From the NCBI GenBank assembly GCA_007132585.1, contig SLOJ01000025.1, positions 1-52,696 on the forward strand: a stretch of 52,696 nucleotides of DNA. Direction: 5' to 3'. Position 1 is the stretch's first letter, and each line of letters starts with the position of its first letter. Source of the DNA: Bacteroidales bacterium (GTDB lineage: Bacteria; Bacteroidota; Bacteroidia; Bacteroidales; UBA7960). The notes under the pieces are model-generated. The model was given only the letters and a program-made list of their open reading frames with translations, was not told the DNA's origin and did no database searches. A program made the translations under genes and the position numbers. This document shows positions 25,063-36,324 of this stretch, piece after piece.

Positions 25063-26706
25063 CTACTTAATAGGCTCACCGGGTTTGCGCCATCTTACAT
25101 CATAATATCCCGGACGTTCTTCCACAGCGCGGCGAAGGTGATCTTCAGGGTAACCCACACCACTGGGCCATGGTCTTAAAGCATCCTCGGTACGAATATA
25201 ACGGTCATTATATTTTGAAAAAATATGATATCCCAGTTCTCTCCACCGCTGAACGGTATATTCTGCATTGTTTACGCTGAAATCGGTAAGATATTCGTAC
25301 ATCATCTCCCTGTCGGTATCATAAAGGGATTTAGCTGCCATATCAACAGCTTTGGTCATTACATGCGAACGGTTTTCCACTTCCTGCTGCACTTCCTTGA
25401 TATCTTCAATGATATAACTGTAAAGACCATAAGCATAGTTGGCCACCAGGTTGAATACCCAAAATGCCGAATCCCAGTCAAAATCTACAATATTACCGGT
25501 TGTAAGAGAAACAGGTGCTCTCTGCATACCCACATAAAGTGGCATATAGGCATTGGAGTAGGTATCATCAACACCATACCAGAAGATACCGCCGATGGGA
25601 TCAGGAAGGAAATTTCTGGATTGAGAAATAAATGAGAACCCGGTTTGTGGTTGTGAAATTGTACGCGGCCAAGCATATTTTTGCTCATCCAGTTCAAAAT
25701 AAAGGGGTCTCCAGCGATAAGGGTTGTTGTAGGGTCCGGCACTGTAACCTTCGGCTGTATAGAACGCAGAATCGTGGAAGTGATCGCGCACAAAACCGAT
25801 CATGTTCTGTACCGTAACTTTACTGTCGGGTTTTACAAAAAGCGGATAAGGTTCAGCACCTTCCACACAACGCCAGTATTCGGCAGGAAAATCCTGTGAA
25901 GGAGCAGCATTGCGGAAAACACTCCACACACGACCTTCGCAAAGCAGCAAAGATTCGCAGGTAAGGGGATTGTATGCTTCCACAAAGTTGAATTCTTCTT
26001 TGGGACCGTTAAACCAGCCCATTTCGCGGGCAAAGTCAACAAGGTCGTCCGACCACATCCAGTTGTCAGTATCTTCCCAGTCAACGGTTCTGATACGCGC
26101 CTGGTTGGCATGAGCGGCAATGTAACCGTCAGGAACTCTTGCGGCAACCCAAACGGCACCTTCGCCATGCTCACCCTTGCCAATGAACTCCATGACCCAT
26201 GCTTCATTTTTGTCGGCAATGGAAAAAGATTCGCCGGTGCTGTTGTAGCCATGGGCATCAACCAGTCCGGTCATCACCTGTATGGCTTCACGGGCGGTTT
26301 TAGAACGTTGCAGTGCAATGTACATCATAGCACCATAATCGATAAACCCATTTGGGGTATGCAGCTCAGAGCGGCCGGTAAAGGTGGTTTCACCTATGGC
26401 AACCTGGTGTTCGTTCATGTTACCTATTACGCGGTAAGTTTTACTTACCTGAGGAATTCTACCCAGCAAATGACCGTAATGCCAGCAAATGATATCAAGA
26501 GAATCACCTTCTTCATATTCATTTCCCGGATAATAATAAAGAGGGTCCATAAACCCACCTGCATCAGCAAGGTAGCTGATCATTACACTTCCATCGGCAC
26601 TGGCGCCGGCGGAAACAAGTACATTGGTACAGGCATTGGTACGCGGGGTAAACAAACCCACAAGCATTACCAGAAAAATGATTTTGAAAAAATTGTTTTT
26701 TGTCAT
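25063..26706 (-). CDS. secreted peptidase family C69 dipeptidase (paralog 1)
   Basis: A signal peptide is followed directly by CTNVLVSAGASADGS, the N-terminal nucleophile Cys of C69 enzymes. 547 aa. Confidence 0.85.
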   Translation of the reverse strand: MTKNNFFKIIFLVMLVGLFTPRTNACTNVLVSAGASADGSVMISYLADAGGFMDPLYYYPGNEYEEGDSLDIICWHYGHLLGRIPQVSKTYRVIGNMNEHQVAIGETTFTGRSELHTPNGFIDYGAMMYIALQRSKTAREAIQVMTGLVDAHGYNSTGESFSIADKNEAWVMEFIGKGEHGEGAVWVAARVPDGYIAAHANQARIRTVDWEDTDNWMWSDDLVDFAREMGWFNGPKEEFNFVEAYNPLTCESLLLCEGRVWSVFRNAAPSQDFPAEYWRCVEGAEPYPLFVKPDSKVTVQNMIGFVRDHFHDSAFYTAEGYSAGPYNNPYRWRPLYFELDEQKYAWPRTISQPQTGFSFISQSRNFLPDPIGGIFWYGVDDTYSNAYMPLYVGMQRAPVSLTTGNIVDFDWDSAFWVFNLVANYAYGLYSYIIEDIKEVQQEVENRSHVMTKAVDMAAKSLYDTDREMMYEYLTDFSVNNAEYTVQRWRELGYHIFSKYNDRYIRTEDALRPWPSGVGYPEDHLRRAVEERPGYYDVRWRKPGEPIK

Positions 26707-26809: not shown

Positions 26810-28468
26810 TTACTTAATAGGCTCACCCGGTTGTCTCCATCTTACATCAAAGTAGTTGGGGTTTTCATCTACAACCCTTTGCAGGTACCATTCGGGATAT
26901 CCGATTCCTTGTGGCCAGGGCCTTAACACATCTTCATCACGAATATAGCGATCATTATATTTTGAAAAAATCTCCCTGCTAAAGTCCCTCCAGCGATTTA
27001 CCACATATTCGGTATGGTTTACGCTGAAATCGGTAAGATAATCACGCATCATTTTCTTATCTGTTTCATATAGTTGCTGTGCAGCAATATCAACAGCATG
27101 TGTCATGGTAAAAGCACGGTTTTCCAGTTTTTTCTGTTCTGCCTGAATGTCGTCAATTACAATCCCATATTGTCCGTATGCATAATTGGCCAAAAGGTCA
27201 AACGTCCAGAATGCAGATTCCCACTCAAATTTGATGGGATTAGCGATAGATAATGATGGAGGTGCTTTGGTAATTCCTGTATAAAGCGGCATAAATACAT
27301 TGGTATGATTATCATCAACACTGTACCAGCAAATACCGCCAATTTCATCGGGGAGCCAGTTGCGTGCCTGGGTAACGAATGAAAAAGCTGTCTGGGGTTG
27401 AGAAATAGGTCTCTCCCATGAATAAGTAATGGTATCTCCGTCCATTTCCAGATCAAAAACAACCGGTCGCCAACGGTAGGGATTATTATGGGGACCTGCA
27501 GCATACCCTTCTCCGGTGTAATAGGGCGTACCGTGGAAATGATCACGTATAAGACCAATCATTGCATCCACTGTTATTTTTTCATCGGGTTTGATAAACA
27601 AAGGATAAGGCTCTACACCTTCTACGCAACGCCAGTAATCAGCAGAAAAATTTTGCGATGGTGCAGCACGGTTATACACACTCCATACCCTGCTTTCGCA
27701 TAGCAGCAGCGATGTAGGAGTTACCGGGTCATAGGCTTCACGAAAACTGAAATTACGGTTTCTGCCTTTATACCAGCCCATTTCTTTGGCAAAATCAACT
27801 ACATCTTCGGCCCACATCCAATTGTCGGTATCTCTCCAGTTTACTTTTCTGATGCGCGACTGGTTAGCATGAGCAGCCATATATCCTTCAGGAACTCTTG
27901 CTGCAACCCACACAGCCCCCCGACCATGTTTACCTTTACCAATGAAATCCATGATCCATACTTCGTCTTTATCTGCAATGGAAAAAGTTTCACCGGTATC
28001 TCTGTATCCATAAGTTTTGGCAAGCTCATCCATAATCATGATGGCTTCTCTGGCTGAACCGGCCCGTTGTAAGGTGATCCATATTAAATTTCCATAATCA
28101 AAAACTCCCTCTCCATCATGTAATTCTCTGCGCCCGGTAAAAGTAGTTTCGGTTATGGCAACCTGTTTTTCATTCATATTACCTACAACACGATAAGTAC
28201 GGGCAGCCTGGGCTATTCTGCCAAGGTAATCATCATCGCGGAAACCGAAGATATCAAGTGAATCTCCTTCTTTATATTCTCCGCCTTCATAGAAATACAA
28301 TGGCTGGGCAAAACCGGCTACATCATAGGTCCAGCTGGTCATAACACTGCCATCAGCACTGGCTCCACGCGACACCAGCACATTGGTGCAGGCTCTGGCC
28401 TGTTCAACTGATCCGGCTAGCAATAGAATAATAAGCAATTGTAAATAAATAAAACTGTTTTTCTTCAT
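26810..28468 (-). CDS. secreted peptidase family C69 dipeptidase (paralog 2)
   Basis: It has the same architecture (…ARACTNVLVSRGASADGS) and is colinear with paralog 1 along all 552 aa. Confidence 0.85.
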   Translation of the reverse strand: MKKNSFIYLQLLIILLLAGSVEQARACTNVLVSRGASADGSVMTSWTYDVAGFAQPLYFYEGGEYKEGDSLDIFGFRDDDYLGRIAQAARTYRVVGNMNEKQVAITETTFTGRRELHDGEGVFDYGNLIWITLQRAGSAREAIMIMDELAKTYGYRDTGETFSIADKDEVWIMDFIGKGKHGRGAVWVAARVPEGYMAAHANQSRIRKVNWRDTDNWMWAEDVVDFAKEMGWYKGRNRNFSFREAYDPVTPTSLLLCESRVWSVYNRAAPSQNFSADYWRCVEGVEPYPLFIKPDEKITVDAMIGLIRDHFHGTPYYTGEGYAAGPHNNPYRWRPVVFDLEMDGDTITYSWERPISQPQTAFSFVTQARNWLPDEIGGICWYSVDDNHTNVFMPLYTGITKAPPSLSIANPIKFEWESAFWTFDLLANYAYGQYGIVIDDIQAEQKKLENRAFTMTHAVDIAAQQLYETDKKMMRDYLTDFSVNHTEYVVNRWRDFSREIFSKYNDRYIRDEDVLRPWPQGIGYPEWYLQRVVDENPNYFDVRWRQPGEPIK

Positions 28469-29806: not shown

Positions 29807-30631
29807 TTATTCCACAGTAATATTCAATTCAGCAGCTATAACCGCCTCCCTGTCACCATAATCTACCACACCCAGAACAGAGTAATTACCCGGGTCAAGA
29901 TTTTCGGGCAGGTTAAAATTCATTTTTCTGCTATGACCGGGCAGCGTTGTAAAAGCTCGTGCTTTCTCACGTATGGTTTCACCGGTTCGAAGGTTAGTAA
30001 GTTCAAGATAGGTAGCTACATCAATGATGGCTTCACCGGTGTTTTCCACATGCAGCATAAGTGTCCTTTTGCCCTCTTCATCTTTTCCGGAATCTTCAAA
30101 AGCAAGGATACGTGCATCTTTGTATGTAACACTGGGTGGTGTCTGGAAAACGTGAATTACAAACTGAAAAGTATGCATGATACCAAAGCCCATAGCATCT
30201 TCTCCCAACCCGGGAGCATCAGTTCTTTCCCTTGCCAGCTTTACCAGTGTGGTAGCCCAGATAACCCTTTCGGCATCGGGCGAATCAGGCAACTGAAGGA
30301 TGATCTCTACATCGCGCGATTCACCTGCGGCCATTTCTACCAGTGATGGAGATGCACTCAACCAGCGACTGGCAGAATGTGGGTTCTCACCCGGATCGGC
30401 CAATTCTGTTTTTCCATCGGTACCCGGTGAAGAAAAATCAGCAAAGTTTACCGTAAAGGACTGTGGAGTATCGGAATTATTGGTTACTGTAATACGCCTT
30501 ACCTGCGATTGCCCGGGCTCGGCGTTAAAATACAATCGCGATGGCGATACCGATGCACTTTGCCCGAAAGTAAATCCTGTGCCCAAAATTGCAAAAAATA
30601 AGATGGATAAGTTTCTTCTGATTGTATTCAT
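29807..30631 (-). CDS. secreted two-domain Ig-like protein, candidate periplasmic chaperone of the 29807-35077 cluster
   Basis: A signal peptide (…GFTFGQSA) is followed by SVSPSRLYFNAEPGQSQVRRITVTNNSDTPQSFTV, which is PapD-like/DUF916-like. A second beta-rich module follows. That it is a CDS is well supported; the function is inferred (~0.35). Confidence 0.5.
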   Translation of the reverse strand: MNTIRRNLSILFFAILGTGFTFGQSASVSPSRLYFNAEPGQSQVRRITVTNNSDTPQSFTVNFADFSSPGTDGKTELADPGENPHSASRWLSASPSLVEMAAGESRDVEIILQLPDSPDAERVIWATTLVKLARERTDAPGLGEDAMGFGIMHTFQFVIHVFQTPPSVTYKDARILAFEDSGKDEEGKRTLMLHVENTGEAIIDVATYLELTNLRTGETIREKARAFTTLPGHSRKMNFNLPENLDPGNYSVLGVVDYGDREAVIAAELNITVE

Positions 30632-30689
30632 ACTGGTTTTGTTTTGTTTTATATTTAATATTTAAAAATTCTTATCGTTTTTACTGGTG

Positions 30690-33617
30690 TTACTCGGGTT
30701 CATCATTTTCCGGCCTTTGAATTCTTATCTGTCTGCCTCTTTCCCGTGCCACAAAACTGATATTCAACTCTTCATGCTCATGCATTATTTCTATGGGAAT
30801 ATCATTATGCTGCAGGTTAAAGTCGGCTCCAAATACATTTTCATTGATTGACAATGTATATTTGCCCCGGGGCAAATATAAGCTGTATTGTCCGCTTTCT
30901 GTAGTAAGCGTATTGAAGGTATCTCCTGCGTCATTGGTAGCGGTAACCCTTATTCCGCCAAGCGGAAAATATTCTGCCCGTGTAAACTGATCGCGTTCCA
31001 GGCTAATACTGCCCGAAACTTTGGCGCCACGATCAACTGATAGGTACATGGTTTGGTTCCTGTTAATCATCACTTCCCATGTGCGGGTTTCATGGCGTTT
31101 ACCAGCGGCCCCAACAGGTACCATGGTAAGCAGGTAATTCCCCGGTGGAATATTCACAAAACCAGCCTTACCATCTTTTCCGGTAAGTGTTTCAAAGGTC
31201 TTTTGCCCACTCATTGCAAGAATACGGTCTTCGGTCATGGGTTCCAATTGCTGCAAGCGTATCCAAATGTCGGGGACTCCCGGGTCACCGATCTGGTAAG
31301 TACCTGTGCCACTGATATCCCTGTAAACCATTACGTTGTAATCATAATATCTGACTCCCGAAGCCGGTACATTCATATCCTTCCTGATGCTGAAACCAAA
31401 CTCATACCGGCTTGAAGAATAAGCTGCACCTTCAAAACCCAGATCAGGAATGCCGATCATATCATCCTGGTCAACAGATAGTCCATAGTAGCGTCCGTAT
31501 ATACCAAAACGCAAACCGGGCTGGGGAAAATAAAACAGCTCGGGCCGCAATGATAAAGAATTCTGTTTGTTATAAGTGGTATAATTATAGATTGCCGACG
31601 CTTGAAAAAACAAACGTCCATCGGCAAAAGACTGATCAAAGTTCATGTTGGCACTGAAACGGTTGGCATTGCGACGATCTTCAGCAAACCGGCGAAGCTC
31701 ATTATTATAATACGGACCAAAATAATACCGTACATTCAAAGAGTAATCAAAATACCTGATACTCATGCGCAATCTTGCCACAAAGAACGGATCAATATCC
31801 TGAAGTTCAGGCATTGCAGTATACCCGGCAAAAACACTGGAGAAAAAGCGAATATTGTACAGATCCTTTAGTCTGTAATCAAGCTCCATACCGGAGTTGT
31901 TATACACGATAAAAGGATCTTCACTGCGGGTATGCAGGGGTTGAAATGTTACATCAGACAGTTGTCCGCGGTATTGATAACCCAGCCTGTATAGCTGTCT
32001 TTTTCTGAAAAGCGACATTTCCCTGAGCTCACCCCGGAAATAAAAATCCGGGTCAGAAGTATATTGTGAAAAGCTTGCAAAGATATTATGGATTGTATTA
32101 AAGCGCCATGCCAACCTGGTGTTCAGGTTATCCATTCCTCTGCGTGCAATATGGGTTGGTGTGCTGCTTGACCATGAAACATTATAATTCAATCGGTCAT
32201 AAGACCCATTGTAGTTGATCCTGTAACCAATACCCATGAGATCAAAAATACTGTCGGGGTTCCATCTATGCGTTTGCCGGCTTACCCCGGCCGAAATCCT
32301 GATAAATTGGTTTCGCAGGAATCGGTAGCTAACATGTCCGCCGGTAATTTCTTCTTCCGTTTTTTGAGTAAAATTTTCACGAACCTGCAACCAGGCTCCA
32401 CCCCTGATTTCTCTTCCAAAATAATTGTATTCAACGCCCAGGGCATTAATATGCTTTTGCGAAGAAAACATGCCCGGGTTTCTCATGTATGCTACATCCA
32501 GTTGATGCTGTTCATAACGGCCGGTTATTCGGGCTCCTTCGCCACTAATACCGGCTCCTTCATTGTTCTGTGTAATATTTCCCAACTCCACTCCAAAGAA
32601 TTTCGATTGAAAGTTCAGTTGCAGATACTGCCCCAGGAAGGCCTGCGGGTTCAGATAGTTACTCGAATAATTGGAAAGGAAATAATATGTAAAAGTAGTT
32701 TCAGGATTAAAAACATGACTACCATAAAGTGCAAAAGTACCGTATGAATTCTCCTGCATAATATCGTATGCATTGAATTCGGCCGTTAGGGGCATGGTAA
32801 GGCGTGTTGATGTATTTTCTATCCAGCGGTCTTCGAGTTTTTTGATCTCCACATTGGAGCCCCATGTTCTTGCCTGACTGTCACGTTCAGAAGCAATGGA
32901 TGCTCTAAGCCTCATGCTTCTTCTGGTGGGTGGAAACAAAACCGATGCCATTTCAGACTCCTGTTCCATAAACCGCAGAAACACCCTTAATGTTGTGTCT
33001 TTTTGCGGATCAATAGGTAGTCTGAGGCTTTTGCCATCAAGTGGTTCACCTCTTTCATTGATCTGAAGCAAACCATCAGGAAGGTTTAGATTCAGATTAA
33101 GCACTTCTGCCAGATCCCCTTCATTCCTTATGTGGATTTTGAAAGAAGTGGTATCGGCATCAGCAGGCAATACAATACGATTGCGCTCAATGCGCGCCGA
33201 CCACTCATATCGTAAAAGCGGAGTGATTACCCAGTCTATATTTACCAGCGGACTTCCAAAACGAAAAAGCGATATTCTTGCAATCTGGGATCGTTCGCTG
33301 CGAATTTGATGCGATGTAATTACTCTTACGGGGAAGAAAGCTGTATCACCGGCTTCCAGGGTAAAGTTTCTTCGGGTTGCACCCACCACACTCCAACCTG
33401 CCGGTTGATTAACTTCAAGAGTATATTCTGCACTTCGATTTGTTACGTTAACTACTCGTACCACATTGGAAACCAGATTGCCGGGCTTCACCTGCGACTG
33501 TCTATCTTGAAGACTAAGTGGCCCCTGCCCTGAATATTCCTGTTGGGAAAAAAGGTTCCAGGGGGCCATAAGCAAAATACAGCACACAAATATTGTTATG
33601 TTAAAAGTTCTACCCAT
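30690..33617 (-). CDS. 975-aa outer-membrane barrel-like protein flanked by beta-sandwich modules, candidate usher/pore of the cluster
   Basis: It begins with a signal peptide. Residues ~40-260 are Ig/CARDB-like (VVRVVNVTNRSAEYTLEVNQPAGW). Residues ~270-740 are aromatic-rich alternating strands. The C-terminal ~230 aa hold two CarboxypepD_reg-like modules (GKAGFVNIPPGNYLL; ESGQYSLYLPRGKYTL). The function is inferred. Confidence 0.5.
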   Translation of the reverse strand: MGRTFNITIFVCCILLMAPWNLFSQQEYSGQGPLSLQDRQSQVKPGNLVSNVVRVVNVTNRSAEYTLEVNQPAGWSVVGATRRNFTLEAGDTAFFPVRVITSHQIRSERSQIARISLFRFGSPLVNIDWVITPLLRYEWSARIERNRIVLPADADTTSFKIHIRNEGDLAEVLNLNLNLPDGLLQINERGEPLDGKSLRLPIDPQKDTTLRVFLRFMEQESEMASVLFPPTRRSMRLRASIASERDSQARTWGSNVEIKKLEDRWIENTSTRLTMPLTAEFNAYDIMQENSYGTFALYGSHVFNPETTFTYYFLSNYSSNYLNPQAFLGQYLQLNFQSKFFGVELGNITQNNEGAGISGEGARITGRYEQHQLDVAYMRNPGMFSSQKHINALGVEYNYFGREIRGGAWLQVRENFTQKTEEEITGGHVSYRFLRNQFIRISAGVSRQTHRWNPDSIFDLMGIGYRINYNGSYDRLNYNVSWSSSTPTHIARRGMDNLNTRLAWRFNTIHNIFASFSQYTSDPDFYFRGELREMSLFRKRQLYRLGYQYRGQLSDVTFQPLHTRSEDPFIVYNNSGMELDYRLKDLYNIRFFSSVFAGYTAMPELQDIDPFFVARLRMSIRYFDYSLNVRYYFGPYYNNELRRFAEDRRNANRFSANMNFDQSFADGRLFFQASAIYNYTTYNKQNSLSLRPELFYFPQPGLRFGIYGRYYGLSVDQDDMIGIPDLGFEGAAYSSSRYEFGFSIRKDMNVPASGVRYYDYNVMVYRDISGTGTYQIGDPGVPDIWIRLQQLEPMTEDRILAMSGQKTFETLTGKDGKAGFVNIPPGNYLLTMVPVGAAGKRHETRTWEVMINRNQTMYLSVDRGAKVSGSISLERDQFTRAEYFPLGGIRVTATNDAGDTFNTLTTESGQYSLYLPRGKYTLSINENVFGADFNLQHNDIPIEIMHEHEELNISFVARERGRQIRIQRPENDEPE

Positions 33618-33628
33618 TCACAATTTGC

Positions 33629-34258
33629 TTACAAATCTTCCACTATTACGTATTTGATCAGGAGATTATACAAACCCGGCTTCAGATCAAAACCAGGCAC
33701 AACGCGCATATCTACATTAAAAAGATAACACTGTGGTTCGGTAAGATAACTACCGGGAGTATTGGTGCCTTGTCCGGGACAATTTACCGAAGGATCACCC
33801 GGGTTTTCAGAACCTATGATAAAGACAGGAGTGTTGATATCGGAAACAGGAAACCACCCGAACTGCTGCGAAGTATTAGCCGTATTGCGGAAGCGGAGTT
33901 CCAGCATTTCGGTAGTCGGTTCATTTCCATGGGTTGAATAGGCAGTAAGTTCATTCCAGTATCCCGGAGAATCGGTTTCGGCTCCAACGTAAAGATCCCA
34001 ATTTACTCCATCAGCAATTATACGGAGGGATATGGCATTGGGAACAACTACACCGGTCTGGTATTTTTGAACGGTGTTGAAGACAAACTCCACATCGGGA
34101 CTTTCTTTGAGCTCAAATGACAGTGACTGTGCAGAAACTATCAAATTACACGTAACAAACCCTGCAAGGAGCATAAAAACCTGCAATTGCCTTACTATAC
34201 TTGTTGTTCTATAATTTTTCTTACCCTGACTTTCTTTGCCTGATATGGATCTCTCCAT
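33629..34258 (-). CDS. small secreted subunit B (paralog of 34388-35077)
   Basis: A long n-region is followed by a hydrophobic core ending ...LIVSAQS. It shares the blocks VEFVFNT.QKY, NWDLY, YSTHG...EMLEL and VDMRVVPG, and the C-terminus Y.IVEDL, with the upstream gene. The start could be a later codon. Confidence 0.5.
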   Translation of the reverse strand: MERSISGKESQGKKNYRTTSIVRQLQVFMLLAGFVTCNLIVSAQSLSFELKESPDVEFVFNTVQKYQTGVVVPNAISLRIIADGVNWDLYVGAETDSPGYWNELTAYSTHGNEPTTEMLELRFRNTANTSQQFGWFPVSDINTPVFIIGSENPGDPSVNCPGQGTNTPGSYLTEPQCYLFNVDMRVVPGFDLKPGLYNLLIKYVIVEDL

Positions 34259-34319
34259 TACAACCTCCCTTGATATAGTTAATTATTCGGTTCAGTAATT
34301 CAGGTATACGCAGAATTAT

Positions 34320-34378
34320 AAAAAAAGCTACCCCCGGAGGCAGCTTTTTTCAAAAAAATGCATTTTTCCCGGGGGTAG
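34320..34378 (-). terminator. compound intrinsic terminator/attenuator between subunit A and subunit B genes
   Basis: The minus strand reads CTACCCCCGG-(30 nt)-CCGGGGGTAG-C-TTTTTTT. A nested proximal hairpin GCTGCC-tccggg-GGTAGC uses the same 3' arm. The 10-bp outer stem is perfect and T7 follows. Confidence 0.6.
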
Positions 34379-34387
34379 AATGATTTC

Positions 34388-35077
34388 TTATAAGTCCTCT
34401 ACCAGTGAATAAACTACTTCGAGGTAATAATAACCGGCAGCGGCATAATCATCAACACCGGCCGGAGCTCCTATTGCTGCATCTATATCAAGTGCAGAAT
34501 TGGGAAAAGTGGCCGGAATATCAGGAACCAGTCTCATATCCAAACGAAAACGGTGTGTTCCAGGGTTTGCCGCAGCAGTTCCTGGATCAAAAGATTCACC
34601 TGCAGCGGTACCAAACTGACCGGCAAGGAATTGAGTGTTATTTGTAGGAATACCTCCGCCTACTTCAGAGTTTTCAAGTCCTAAAATAGAAGTAAATGAA
34701 TTTAAATTAACAGGCGCACTGCTGAGCACCGATGATTGAATTTCAAGAATTTCGGCAGGAAGTACCCCGCTGCCGTTAGTGGAATACTGTTCAACCTGAA
34801 CCCAGTTATTGGTGCTTGCATAAGCAAAAAGGTCCCATGCCATGGTGGCATCCACCTCCAGTTGTACGGCATTGAAACGGGTGATACCGTTCATATACTC
34901 CTGAATGGTACTAAAAACAAAATCTACCTGTGGATTGGTAGTCATGGTGAGGTTAAGGATACCCCTGAGGTCCATGGTTACATAATTGTACTCTTCATCT
35001 GAAAGCTGTGCATAACTTTTAGTAGTAAAGCAGCCCAGCGCCAGGATTGCAACAAAAACAAATAAAAACTTTCTCAT
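34388..35077 (-). CDS. small secreted subunit A (candidate major subunit)
   Basis: Its signal peptide is MRKFLFVFVAILALGCFTTKSYAQ, with SPI cleavage likely after YAQ; a weak lipobox LGC is an alternative. It is paralogous to 33629-34258 and ends YYYLEVVYSLVEDL. Confidence 0.5.
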   Translation of the reverse strand: MRKFLFVFVAILALGCFTTKSYAQLSDEEYNYVTMDLRGILNLTMTTNPQVDFVFSTIQEYMNGITRFNAVQLEVDATMAWDLFAYASTNNWVQVEQYSTNGSGVLPAEILEIQSSVLSSAPVNLNSFTSILGLENSEVGGGIPTNNTQFLAGQFGTAAGESFDPGTAAANPGTHRFRLDMRLVPDIPATFPNSALDIDAAIGAPAGVDDYAAAGYYYLEVVYSLVEDL

Positions 35078-35341: not shown

Positions 35342-35381
35342 AAAAAAGCCCGTCATATTCTGTTGAAGAATACAACGGGCT
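35342..35381 (-). terminator. intrinsic terminator of the DUF1573 gene
   Basis: The minus strand reads AGCCCGT-(21-nt loop with inner TATTCT/AGAATA pairing)-ACGGGCT followed by TTTTTT. Confidence 0.7.
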
Positions 35382-35413
35382 TTGGGTTACCTTGTGGTTT
35401 ACTGTAAACCGTT

Positions 35414-35809
35414 TTATCTTTCCACTACTTCACCAACAATCCTAAATATAGATGTTGCCGGGTCGGCATTGGAAGTAACAGTAACTGTTCTGCTTATTCT
35501 ATGAGCGCGTGGAGCAAGGCGAAACTCAACCTTGATGGAGCCTTCTTCACCTGGCATAATGGGTTCGCGTGTCCAGCTGTTTACCCGTGTGCCGCAACAT
35601 GCTCTCACGTGCGACAATACCAGGGGCTCATTACCTTCATTGGTAAATTTAATGTCGAGCTTGGTTTCGGGCAGATCATCAAGATATACCGTTCCGTAAT
35701 CGTAGCGATTAAGTTCCCATTTTAATTCGGGACCATCTTTTTTCTCCTGGGAAACTGCAACTCCCATTCCCATAAAAACAGCAAAAAAGAACCAAATAAT
35801 ATTTTTCAT
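35414..35809 (-). CDS. DUF1573 domain protein (small secreted Ig-like protein)
   Basis: 131 aa with a signal peptide. YDYGTV......FTNEGNEPLVLSHVRACCGT matches the DUF1573 pattern. Confidence 0.75.
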   Translation of the reverse strand: MKNIIWFFFAVFMGMGVAVSQEKKDGPELKWELNRYDYGTVYLDDLPETKLDIKFTNEGNEPLVLSHVRACCGTRVNSWTREPIMPGEEGSIKVEFRLAPRAHRISRTVTVTSNADPATSIFRIVGEVVER

Positions 35810-36030: not shown

Positions 36031-36324
36031 TCAATGGCATTTATTGATGCAATCAATAATTTGTGCCAATGCATTTTCCTTCAGATAGTAAAAAGTTTTC
36101 TTTCCGCTGCGCCTGGAATCGAGAACACCCTTTGTTTTAAGGATATTCAGATGATGAGATGCTGATGCCTGTTCAATTTTTAAAGACTCGTATATTTCAG
36201 TAACATTCATTTGCTCTTTTCTTTCAAGCATATCAATGATGGCAATACGCATCGGGTGAGCAATGGCTCGCATTTTACTAGCAGCTTCTTCCAGTCTCTT
36301 CGAATCAAGTTTTGTTTGTGCCAT
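36031..36324 (-). CDS. ArsR/SmtB family transcriptional regulator
   Basis: 97 aa. It has a winged HTH: AIAHPMRIAIIDML...MNVTEIYESLKIEQASASHHLNILK..GVL. Confidence 0.88.
   Translation of the reverse strand: MAQTKLDSKRLEEAASKMRAIAHPMRIAIIDMLERKEQMNVTEIYESLKIEQASASHHLNILKTKGVLDSRRSGKKTFYYLKENALAQIIDCINKCH

Follow-up and report, generated by a model that had tools for sequence, protein, structure and literature searches.

A conserved four-gene cluster of Bacteroidota encodes homologues of the TLP-1 fibril subunit beside a predicted PapD-like chaperone and an usher-like outer-membrane protein

We analysed a cluster of four genes in a 52,696-nucleotide stretch of DNA from a Bacteroidales bacterium (assembly GCA_007132585.1, contig SLOJ01000025.1, positions 1–52,696; hereafter the window), which an earlier reading of the letters alone (the original prediction) had singled out as a secreted module resembling chaperone–usher systems. 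The cluster spans positions 29807–35077 and consists of four open reading frames (ORFs) on the minus strand with gaps of 129, 11 and 58 nt between them, exactly as that prediction had placed them. In order of transcription, the genes encode a 229-residue protein (subunit 1; 34388–35077 (−)), a 209-residue protein (subunit 2; 33629–34258 (−)), a 975-residue outer-membrane protein (30690–33617 (−)) and, last, a 274-residue, two-domain periplasmic protein resembling PapD-type chaperones (29807–30631 (−)). By inspection, all four products begin with positively charged residues, continue with a hydrophobic segment and then show A, G or S followed by Q, as expected of Sec signal peptides; one independent support for a cleavage site of this form comes from the first residue of a fibril chain seen by microscopy (see below). 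The two small proteins are paralogues, as had been proposed (30% identity, E value 9e-16). Scans against Pfam and NCBIfam assigned none of the four proteins to a family above the cut-off, with the exception of generic β-sandwich domains in the 975-residue protein.

Subunit 1 proved to be related to a fibril of known structure. TLP-1a and TLP-1b (PDB 9IKJ and 9IKK) are 8-nm fibrils that were imaged directly from pond water and described in 2024; in their cryo-electron microscopy (cryo-EM) structure, protomer n has an immunoglobulin-like (Ig-like) fold whose missing strand is supplied by the N-terminus of protomer n+4. Neither the organism, the gene nor the machinery was identified by the authors, and neighbouring genes, chaperones and ushers go unmentioned in their paper except in the titles of references (PMC11494351). 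An AlphaFold2 (AF2) model of subunit 1 that was computed from 59 sequences had a mean predicted local distance difference test score (pLDDT) of 81, with residues 19–38 disordered. Among its Foldseek matches, 9IKJ and 9IKK were outstanding (9IKJ: E value 9e-13, template modelling (TM) score 0.67, 25% identity), and the later listed matches with support were nearly all donor-strand fibre subunits—including TasA, CfaB, AbpA, the Pyrobaculum bundling pili, CS20, CupE, EcpA, PapA and CsuE—with a few glycosidases aside. The relation is also evident in the sequences: a hidden Markov model (HMM) profile of 59 members of the subunit family matched 9IKK and 9IKJ with an E value of 2e-23 over chain residues 5–236, and TLP-1a shares 29.6% identity with subunit 1 in BLASTP (E value 1.6e-14); NYVTMDLRGILNL aligns with VTVTMDLQPVLQL. 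The statement of the original prediction that the cluster fits no named pilus family does not hold for the subunits, which belong to the TLP-1a/b fibril family.

The N-terminus of subunit 1 carries the feature by which TLP-1 protomers are linked. The signal peptide covers residues 1–23 (35009–35077 (−)), with predicted cleavage between A23 and Q24; hardly any family member deviates at A23, Q24 or L25, and the TLP-1 cryo-EM chain starts at the corresponding position. The peptide is followed by an extension of residues 24–40 (34958–35008 (−); QLSDEEYNYVTMDLRGI), which is aligned with the donor strand (β1) of TLP-1a (EQNVTVTMDLQPVLQL), is disordered in the model of the monomer (pLDDT < 50) and is the predicted donor strand of subunit 1. 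Related loci yielded 58 ORFs orthologous to subunit 1 within the cluster, and in orthologues from several orders of Bacteroidota the extension is near-invariant (QLSD(E/Q)EY.(Y/A)VTMDL(R/Q)GIL). By homology to the TLP-1 cryo-EM structure, the Ig-like fold of subunit 1 would be incomplete until another subunit contributes its N-terminal strand, and we predict that it is the major, polymerising subunit of a fibre. Its homologues form a large group (312 cluster representatives in a word-indexed search), nearly all of which are unnamed proteins of Bacteroidota. At E ≤ 1, neither the two subunits nor the 59 family members matched the Pfam families Fimbrial, SCPU or DUF4402, and no match to the Pfam FimA/Mfa families was found for the same set of proteins. 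No lipobox Cys is conserved in the subunit family (a Cys in the signal peptide of the window protein is not kept), and the subunits have no Por_Secre_tail match in Pfam and hence no recognizable C-terminal domain of the type IX secretion system (T9SS). Some loci hold additional copies of the major-subunit gene—three in tandem at locus L026 (3917–6223) and a second copy 3 kb downstream at locus L037 (14658–15371)—which may allow variants of the fibre.

Subunit 2 differs from its paralogue at the N-terminus. The VTMDL motif that is near-invariant in subunit 1 is absent from 49 of the 57 subunit 2 ORFs; likewise, the match of subunit 2 orthologues to the family profile starts at position 40–43 (mostly 41–42), past the extension, in 49/57, and of the 30 N-termini listed, nearly all have the first core strand at the very start of the mature protein. 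At the C-terminus, both paralogues end in a conserved strand of the form ..Y.(L/I)VEDL, and subunit 2 shares the motif ..Y.IVEDL. A subunit with an acceptor groove and no donor strand of its own could occupy only the distal end of a chain. By analogy with the tip subunits of chaperone–usher pili, subunit 2 is likely to be a distal tip or initiator subunit.

The 274-residue protein had been described as a two-module β-protein resembling PapD-like chaperones and DUF916-type proteins, and this description is borne out. The protein is Ig-like and has sub-threshold Pfam matches to PapD_N, MSP, DUF916 and Fn3-like families: PapD_N scores 15.6 bits against a cut-off of 23 and matches only 8 of 60 family members at E ≤ 0.1, and WxLIP_PGBD (DUF916) is found below threshold in 26/60 members (best E value 4e-4) and in the homologue at the freshwater locus L102 (E value 2.6e-4). 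The family comprises more than 100 cluster representatives, and annotation pipelines already label a few of these 'P pilus assembly chaperone PapD' or 'fimbrial biogenesis chaperone'. A PDB search with the HMM of the family gave no match. We then aligned the 60 members with six chaperones of Escherichia coli K-12 (FimC, YadV, YehC, YraI, SfmC and EcpB) using hhalign, which gave 90.5% probability and an E value of 1.4e-6 over 201 columns that cover both domains; in control comparisons between the chaperone family and other Ig-like alignments from the locus, the probability was ≤27.6% over ≤30 columns. PapD-like chaperones hold the C-terminal carboxylate of a subunit with a pair of basic residues, Arg8 and Lys112. 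In the alignment, R32 of the 274-residue protein, which is invariant (60/60), falls on FimC Arg8 and K131, a position held by K or R in 58/60 members, on Lys112, and among 85 ORFs of the chaperone family the Arg is kept in 78 and a Lys or Arg in 77, the deviating members including those of the TLP-1 clade. These data support the assignment of the 274-residue protein as a remote but specific homologue of the PapD/FimC chaperones, which is predicted to complement the grooves of subunits with one of its strands. The protein ends in ..AELNITVE and has no hydrophobic C-terminal helix. Orphan paralogues of the chaperone gene also occur, with no usher-like or subunit genes nearby (L036, L042, L053, L060, L070 and L074), and at two of these loci (L053 and L060) the orphan gene adjoins a gene for a cyclophilin-type prolyl isomerase.

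The 975-residue protein was modelled with AF2 on an alignment of 17 sequences, and the model shows sandwich domains, a barrel and again sandwich domains, an arrangement that agrees with the central barrel and flanking modules of the original prediction. According to the secondary structure of the model (assigned with DSSP), two Ig-like domains at the N-terminus (residues ~34–261; 32835–33518 (−)), predicted to be periplasmic, are followed by a predicted β-barrel in which ~24–26 long antiparallel strands succeed one another without interruption (residues ~292–746; 31380–32744 (−)) and by two C-terminal β-sandwiches (residues ~758–959; 30741–31346 (−)) that are also predicted to lie in the periplasm. 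The pLDDT of the barrel reaches 96 within residues 500–650. Pfam detects an Ig-like FixG_C domain at residues 45–111 (E value 5e-5), and CarboxypepD_reg (E value 4.8e-9), SdrD_B and SpaA prealbumin-like folds in the C-terminal sandwiches. Among the 50 PDB matches listed by Foldseek, the only outer-membrane barrels were the ushers FimD and PapC, which were aligned colinearly over 780–1000 columns with E values of 2.6e-10 to 4e-6 (FimD, 2.6e-10 to 1e-7); the other listed matches were proteins rich in Ig-like domains. No TonB-dependent receptor was among these 50 matches, nor did Pfam find Plug or TonB_dep_Rec at E ≤ 1; by these tests, the protein is not a TonB-dependent receptor. An exhaustive profile search recovered a family of 230 cluster representatives at E ≤ 1e-30, with most of the 150 listed members matching end to end. 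Many members of this usher-like family are longer, at 1100–1500 residues (P0350 and those at L013, L044, L054 and L057, among others), the additional length being C-terminal only in the genome orthologues that were checked, and in a sample of 40 distant relatives the protein may end in a peptidoglycan-binding domain (OmpA in nine, SPOR in seven and LysM in two), which in the longer orthologues comes after the two sandwiches. Such domains indicate a periplasmic C-terminus, a topology shared with ushers, and would tie the translocon to the cell wall in the species that have them. The 975-residue protein is thus usher-like in its predicted fold, topology and genomic role, but its membership of the usher family cannot be demonstrated.

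To find related loci, one genome per species was scanned with the chaperone profile, and neighbouring genes were identified by six-frame HMM searches. This yielded 79 loci from Marinilabiliales, Bacteroidales, Sphingobacteriales (Pedobacter and Paradesertivirga), Cytophagales (Pontibacter), Chitinophagales and Flavobacteriales, and from one metagenome-assembled genome labelled 'Chlorobiota'. At 58 of the 64 loci with room for it, the large gene is the immediate upstream neighbour of the chaperone gene, and all four genes are present at 41 of the 48 loci with enough flanking sequence for all of them, with two gene orders (subunit genes upstream at 26 loci and downstream at 15). The co-occurrence of the four families across Bacteroidota, which the original prediction had named as a check, was therefore observed, and at a frequency far beyond chance. 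Clustering of all neighbouring genes revealed no fifth gene that is conserved across lineages; flanking genes are kept only within sub-lineages. The cluster is present in cultured strains of Pedobacter, Pontibacter, Paradesertivirga, Carboxylicivirga, Geofilum and Saccharicrinis, and homologues of subunit 1 are also recorded from Natronoflexus and Alkalitalea. Cultured carriers of the cluster include Pedobacter sp. SYSU D00535, Pontibacter harenae, Carboxylicivirga sp. A043 and Geofilum rubicundum.

We also looked for the genomic surroundings of TLP-1 itself. The sequence of TLP-1a was rebuilt from the profile alignment and used to scan metagenome contigs, which revealed relatives at 30 metagenome loci, mostly from freshwater samples, with 37–56% identity. 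None of them can be taken as the exact source of TLP-1, the best relative being only 56% identical; a fragment at L115 reaches 76% identity over residues 1–54 only. The closer relatives (50–56% identity) lie on freshwater contigs with T9SS-tagged genes and are flanked by chaperone-like and usher-like genes. Where the contigs are long, a second subunit-like gene and a member of the usher-like family with ~1180 codons come after the TLP-1-like gene (L087, L096, L102, L107 and L110), and a gene of the chaperone family precedes it at L101, L102, L110, L113 and L114. The neighbouring genes at L102 encode T9SS sorting domains and SprB repeats, indicating that this contig comes from Bacteroidota. The TLP-1-like protein of L102 reads ..AKAQ up to its predicted cleavage site and LIDEQNVTVTMDL after it, and the cryo-EM chain has four residues ahead of EQNV; accordingly, the chain in the micrographs begins at the predicted cleavage site. 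The second subunit of the TLP-1 clade (L102, 10815–11555) has a Cys-rich N-terminal segment of ~27 residues and does not start at the first core strand. The presence of chaperone-like and usher-like genes beside the relatives of TLP-1 indicates that a fibril of the TLP-1 kind is encoded in a cluster of this kind.

The boundaries and internal signals of the cluster can be read from the window. The gene upstream, on the same strand, encodes a secreted DUF1573 protein of the PapD-like clan (35414–35809 (−); Pfam E value 7.5e-22) and ends in a strong intrinsic terminator with a 17-bp stem and a T-run (35345–35383 (−)), and the cluster is therefore a transcription unit of its own with its upstream boundary at this terminator. 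Just past the stop codon of subunit 1 lies a second terminator-like hairpin, in which an 11-bp G+C-rich stem is followed by UUUUUUU (34319–34378 (−)). A comparable hairpin and U-run follows the subunit 1 gene at 41 of 50 related loci, compared with 53 of 400 random windows (13%), and its sequence varies by lineage (L001–L078)—the feature is conserved, not the sequence. It is likely to act as an attenuator, through which far more major subunit than machinery would be made. Farther upstream, on the same strand, lies a gene for a regulator of the ArsR family (36031–36324 (−)). The DUF1573 and ArsR genes were considered as a fifth component and set aside given that they are kept only in the closest relatives (L001 and L005–L009) and are separated from the cluster by the strong terminator; they probably lie outside the system. 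Downstream, two adjacent paralogous genes (25063–26706 (−) and 26810–28468 (−)) encode peptidase-like proteins of ~550 residues that bear signal peptides and are 62% identical; this pair adjoins the cluster only in close relatives.

Taken together, we consider with good confidence that the cluster is a self-contained module of Bacteroidota for chaperone-assisted donor-strand exchange at an outer-membrane translocon, with subunit 2 entering first as the tip and subunit 1 forming the shaft. All four products would be exported to the periplasm through their Sec signal peptides. There, subunits 1 and 2 would each adopt an Ig-like fold that is one strand short, with a groove beside the C-terminal strand (..YSLVEDL), and the 274-residue chaperone would cap this groove with a strand of its own while Arg32 and Lys131 grip the C-terminal carboxylate of the subunit. 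The chaperone–subunit complexes would then bind to the 975-residue protein at its Ig-like domains in the periplasm, where the extension of an incoming subunit 1 (QLSDEEYNYVTMDLRGIL) would oust the chaperone strand from the previous subunit by donor-strand exchange, and the growing chain would be threaded outward through the barrel. Subunit 2 would probably be the first to enter and would remain at the distal end only. The hairpin after the subunit 1 gene would ensure that the major subunit outnumbers the machinery, and the product would be a relative of the 8-nm TLP-1 fibrils from pond water. The subunit–subunit–pore–chaperone fibre module of the original prediction is in this form supported by the homology of the subunits to TLP-1, the homology of the chaperone, the fold matches of the large protein (only ushers among the barrels in the 50 listed) and the linkage of the genes. 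None of the outcomes that the original prediction had named as refuting it was observed.

Several observations weigh against this reading. The model of the large protein is of moderate quality (mean pLDDT 72, predicted TM-score 0.42), and the TM-scores to ushers are low (0.19–0.32; 0.21–0.32 for FimD). Pfam Usher (PF00577) does not match the protein or any of the 40 distant relatives at E ≤ 1, and a PDB search with the HMM of the family returned no usher and nothing else of relevance. In hhalign comparisons with six E. coli ushers, the probability was 0.6% with the alignment of 17 sequences and at most 1.3% with 59 sequences taken from the genome loci, for the full length as well as for the N-terminal, barrel and C-terminal parts. 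We therefore make no claim of homology to ushers, and the claim of the original prediction that the cluster is not recognizably homologous with classical chaperone–usher systems stands for the outer-membrane protein and fails for the chaperone, in which the Arg/Lys pair is aligned. Nor is there a plug domain: between the strands of the barrel, the DSSP string of the model (the only source for this point) contains no insertion of more than ~20 residues, which leaves gating unexplained. Two further points come from the TLP-1 fibril and its clade. The chaperone-like proteins of this clade (L101, L102, L110 and L114) have T or S and D in the Arg and Lys columns, with an Arg two residues on. Moreover, links from n to n+4 amount to four separate chains per TLP-1 fibril, and a model with a single-pore usher leaves the four chains unexplained.

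In an alternative reading, the subunits polymerize outside the cell without the catalysis of a chaperone and usher, as do TasA, archaeal bundling pili and cannulae; the 975-residue protein would then serve only to anchor the fibre or as a general porin, and the 274-residue protein would be a structural or adaptor protein. Self-assembly of this kind could produce the four-chain architecture of TLP-1 outside the cell; it would also be in keeping with a large protein that has neither sequence similarity to ushers nor a plug domain, and with a structural match list in which a TasA fibre ranks third after TLP-1 and which also includes chaperone-free fibres of archaea. Yet a diderm cell still needs a route for its subunits across the outer membrane, and that of the T9SS is not indicated by any C-terminal domain on them; furthermore, the 274-residue protein is specifically related to PapD and keeps the carboxylate-binding pair, and the genes for the barrel and the chaperone are neighbours at 58/64 loci. 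On balance, we regard self-assembly as unlikely, and catalysed donor-strand exchange remains the reading that we prefer.

Two other readings turn on known systems. The cluster could be the diderm counterpart of the WxL/DUF916 (Csc) clusters of Gram-positive bacteria and specify a wall-held, non-fibrous surface complex, a possibility to which we give a very slim chance. WxL clusters hold a small and a large WxL paralogue together with a two-Ig-domain protein (PMC9772566, PMC10599100), the sub-threshold DUF916 matches of the chaperone family point in the same direction, and the UniRef name of one subunit 1 homologue (P0145, from Alkalitalea saponilacus) is 'WxL domain-containing protein'. We take this name for an automatic label without support, or else for a hint of a very remote relation. 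Against this reading, Pfam WxL matches none of the 59 members of the subunit family at E ≤ 1, the Asp, Arg and GTxAG features of WxL domains (PMC9772566) are absent around W81, the 274-residue protein lacks the C-terminal transmembrane helix described for DUF916–DUF3324 proteins, and the subunits are homologous to a polymer of solved structure; we therefore dropped WxL as an explanation and keep it as a weak rival only. A variant of the type V pilus (FimA/Mfa1), or a TonB-dependent, SusC-like transporter with cargo-binding neighbours, would fit the phylum in either case, and CarboxypepD_reg is common in SusC-like receptors. In the 975-residue protein, however, that domain is C-terminal rather than N-terminal, and neither the Pfam searches for Plug and TonB_dep_Rec nor the 50 listed fold matches point to a TonB-dependent receptor; the subunits, for their part, have no conserved lipoprotein Cys, no FimA/Mfa match and a donor strand that is N-terminal, as in chaperone–usher pili. 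We hardly credit either of these two possibilities.

If the preferred reading of catalysed assembly is extended to the phylum, Bacteroidota would have, in addition to type V pili, a widespread pathway of their own for a fourth kind of pilus, in which a PapD-related chaperone and a plug-less translocon with two N-terminal domains, often anchored to peptidoglycan and either independently evolved or diverged beyond recognition, build four-stranded donor-strand tubules of the TLP-1 type. We see about an even chance that this broader proposal is right. Such tubules are known only as the orphan TLP-1 fibrils, whose abundance in fresh water sufficed for structure determination from pond samples as they were.

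We found no description of the four-gene machinery and no follow-up of TLP-1 in open-access papers and preprints. What is already known is the structure of the subunit family, as an orphan, and the chaperone–usher principle; what is new is the placement of this fibre family in Bacteroidota, the conserved four-gene module, the PapD-related chaperone and the large, unnamed usher-like family without sequence similarity to ushers. The orphan TLP-1 fibrils thereby gain a phylum, a four-gene locus and an assembly route that can be tested, and the cluster probably shows how a fibril of the TLP-1 kind is made. The chaperone–usher principle would reach wider than before, the described pili of Bacteroidota being of type V and usher-free. 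Because the translocon is not a recognizable usher, one may ask whether it arose by convergence or by extreme divergence; the outer-membrane family, with its 230 representatives, has no Pfam family of its own. The presence of the cluster in cultured strains makes the proposed functions accessible to genetics.

Ushers consist of a periplasmic N-terminal domain, a 24-strand barrel with an inserted plug and two periplasmic C-terminal sandwiches. Compared with the classical and archaic chaperone–usher pili (Fim, Pap, CFA/I, Csu and CupE), the cluster of the window shares a predicted major subunit with an N-terminal donor strand and a minor one without it, a chaperone of two Ig-like domains that is homologous to FimC and PapD and has the Arg/Lys pair, a hairpin after the gene for the major subunit, and a predicted barrel flanked by sandwich domains for which FimD and PapC were the only barrel-type matches among the 50 listed. 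It differs in that the outer-membrane protein falls outside the usher sequence family, has two N-terminal domains and no inserted plug, in that the subunits of the window match no Fimbrial, SCPU or DUF4402 family, and in its occurrence in the phylum Bacteroidota; the donor strand in the related TLP-1 fibril also comes from protomer n+4, not n+1. TasA fibres and the bundling pili or threads of archaea share the fold class of the subunit and the N-terminal donor strand (Foldseek 8AUR, E value 1.6e-3; 7UEG and 7PNB). Those fibres, which are chaperone-free or primed by TapA, are made without an outer membrane, a PapD-like chaperone or a barrel gene, whereas both genes are strictly linked here.

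Type V pilins are lipoproteins that are matured by proteolysis and exchange a C-terminal strand, without an usher. The pili of this type (FimA/Mfa1) occur in the same phylum and are likewise surface fibres built by strand exchange, but the window cluster has no conserved lipobox Cys or FimA/Mfa match, and has instead an N-terminal donor strand and a dedicated barrel and chaperone. The WxL/DUF916–DUF3324 (Csc) clusters of Lactobacillales resemble it in their two paralogous secreted β-proteins with a two-Ig-domain partner, and through the sub-threshold matches to DUF916; unlike them, the window cluster has no WxL match and no transmembrane anchor, includes an outer-membrane barrel and encodes subunits that are related to a polymer. 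With regard to TLP-1, the protein of the window is a distant member of the family, and the helical arrangement (an 8-nm tubule with an n+4 donor) may differ; the TLP-1 clade is further set apart by a chaperone-like protein without the aligned Arg/Lys pair and by the Cys-rich N-terminal segment of its second subunit. Subunit 1 nonetheless belongs to the same family as TLP-1 (~25–30% identity), and the two have in common an N-terminal donor strand with the VTMDL motif and a C-terminal strand of the form ..V.VE.

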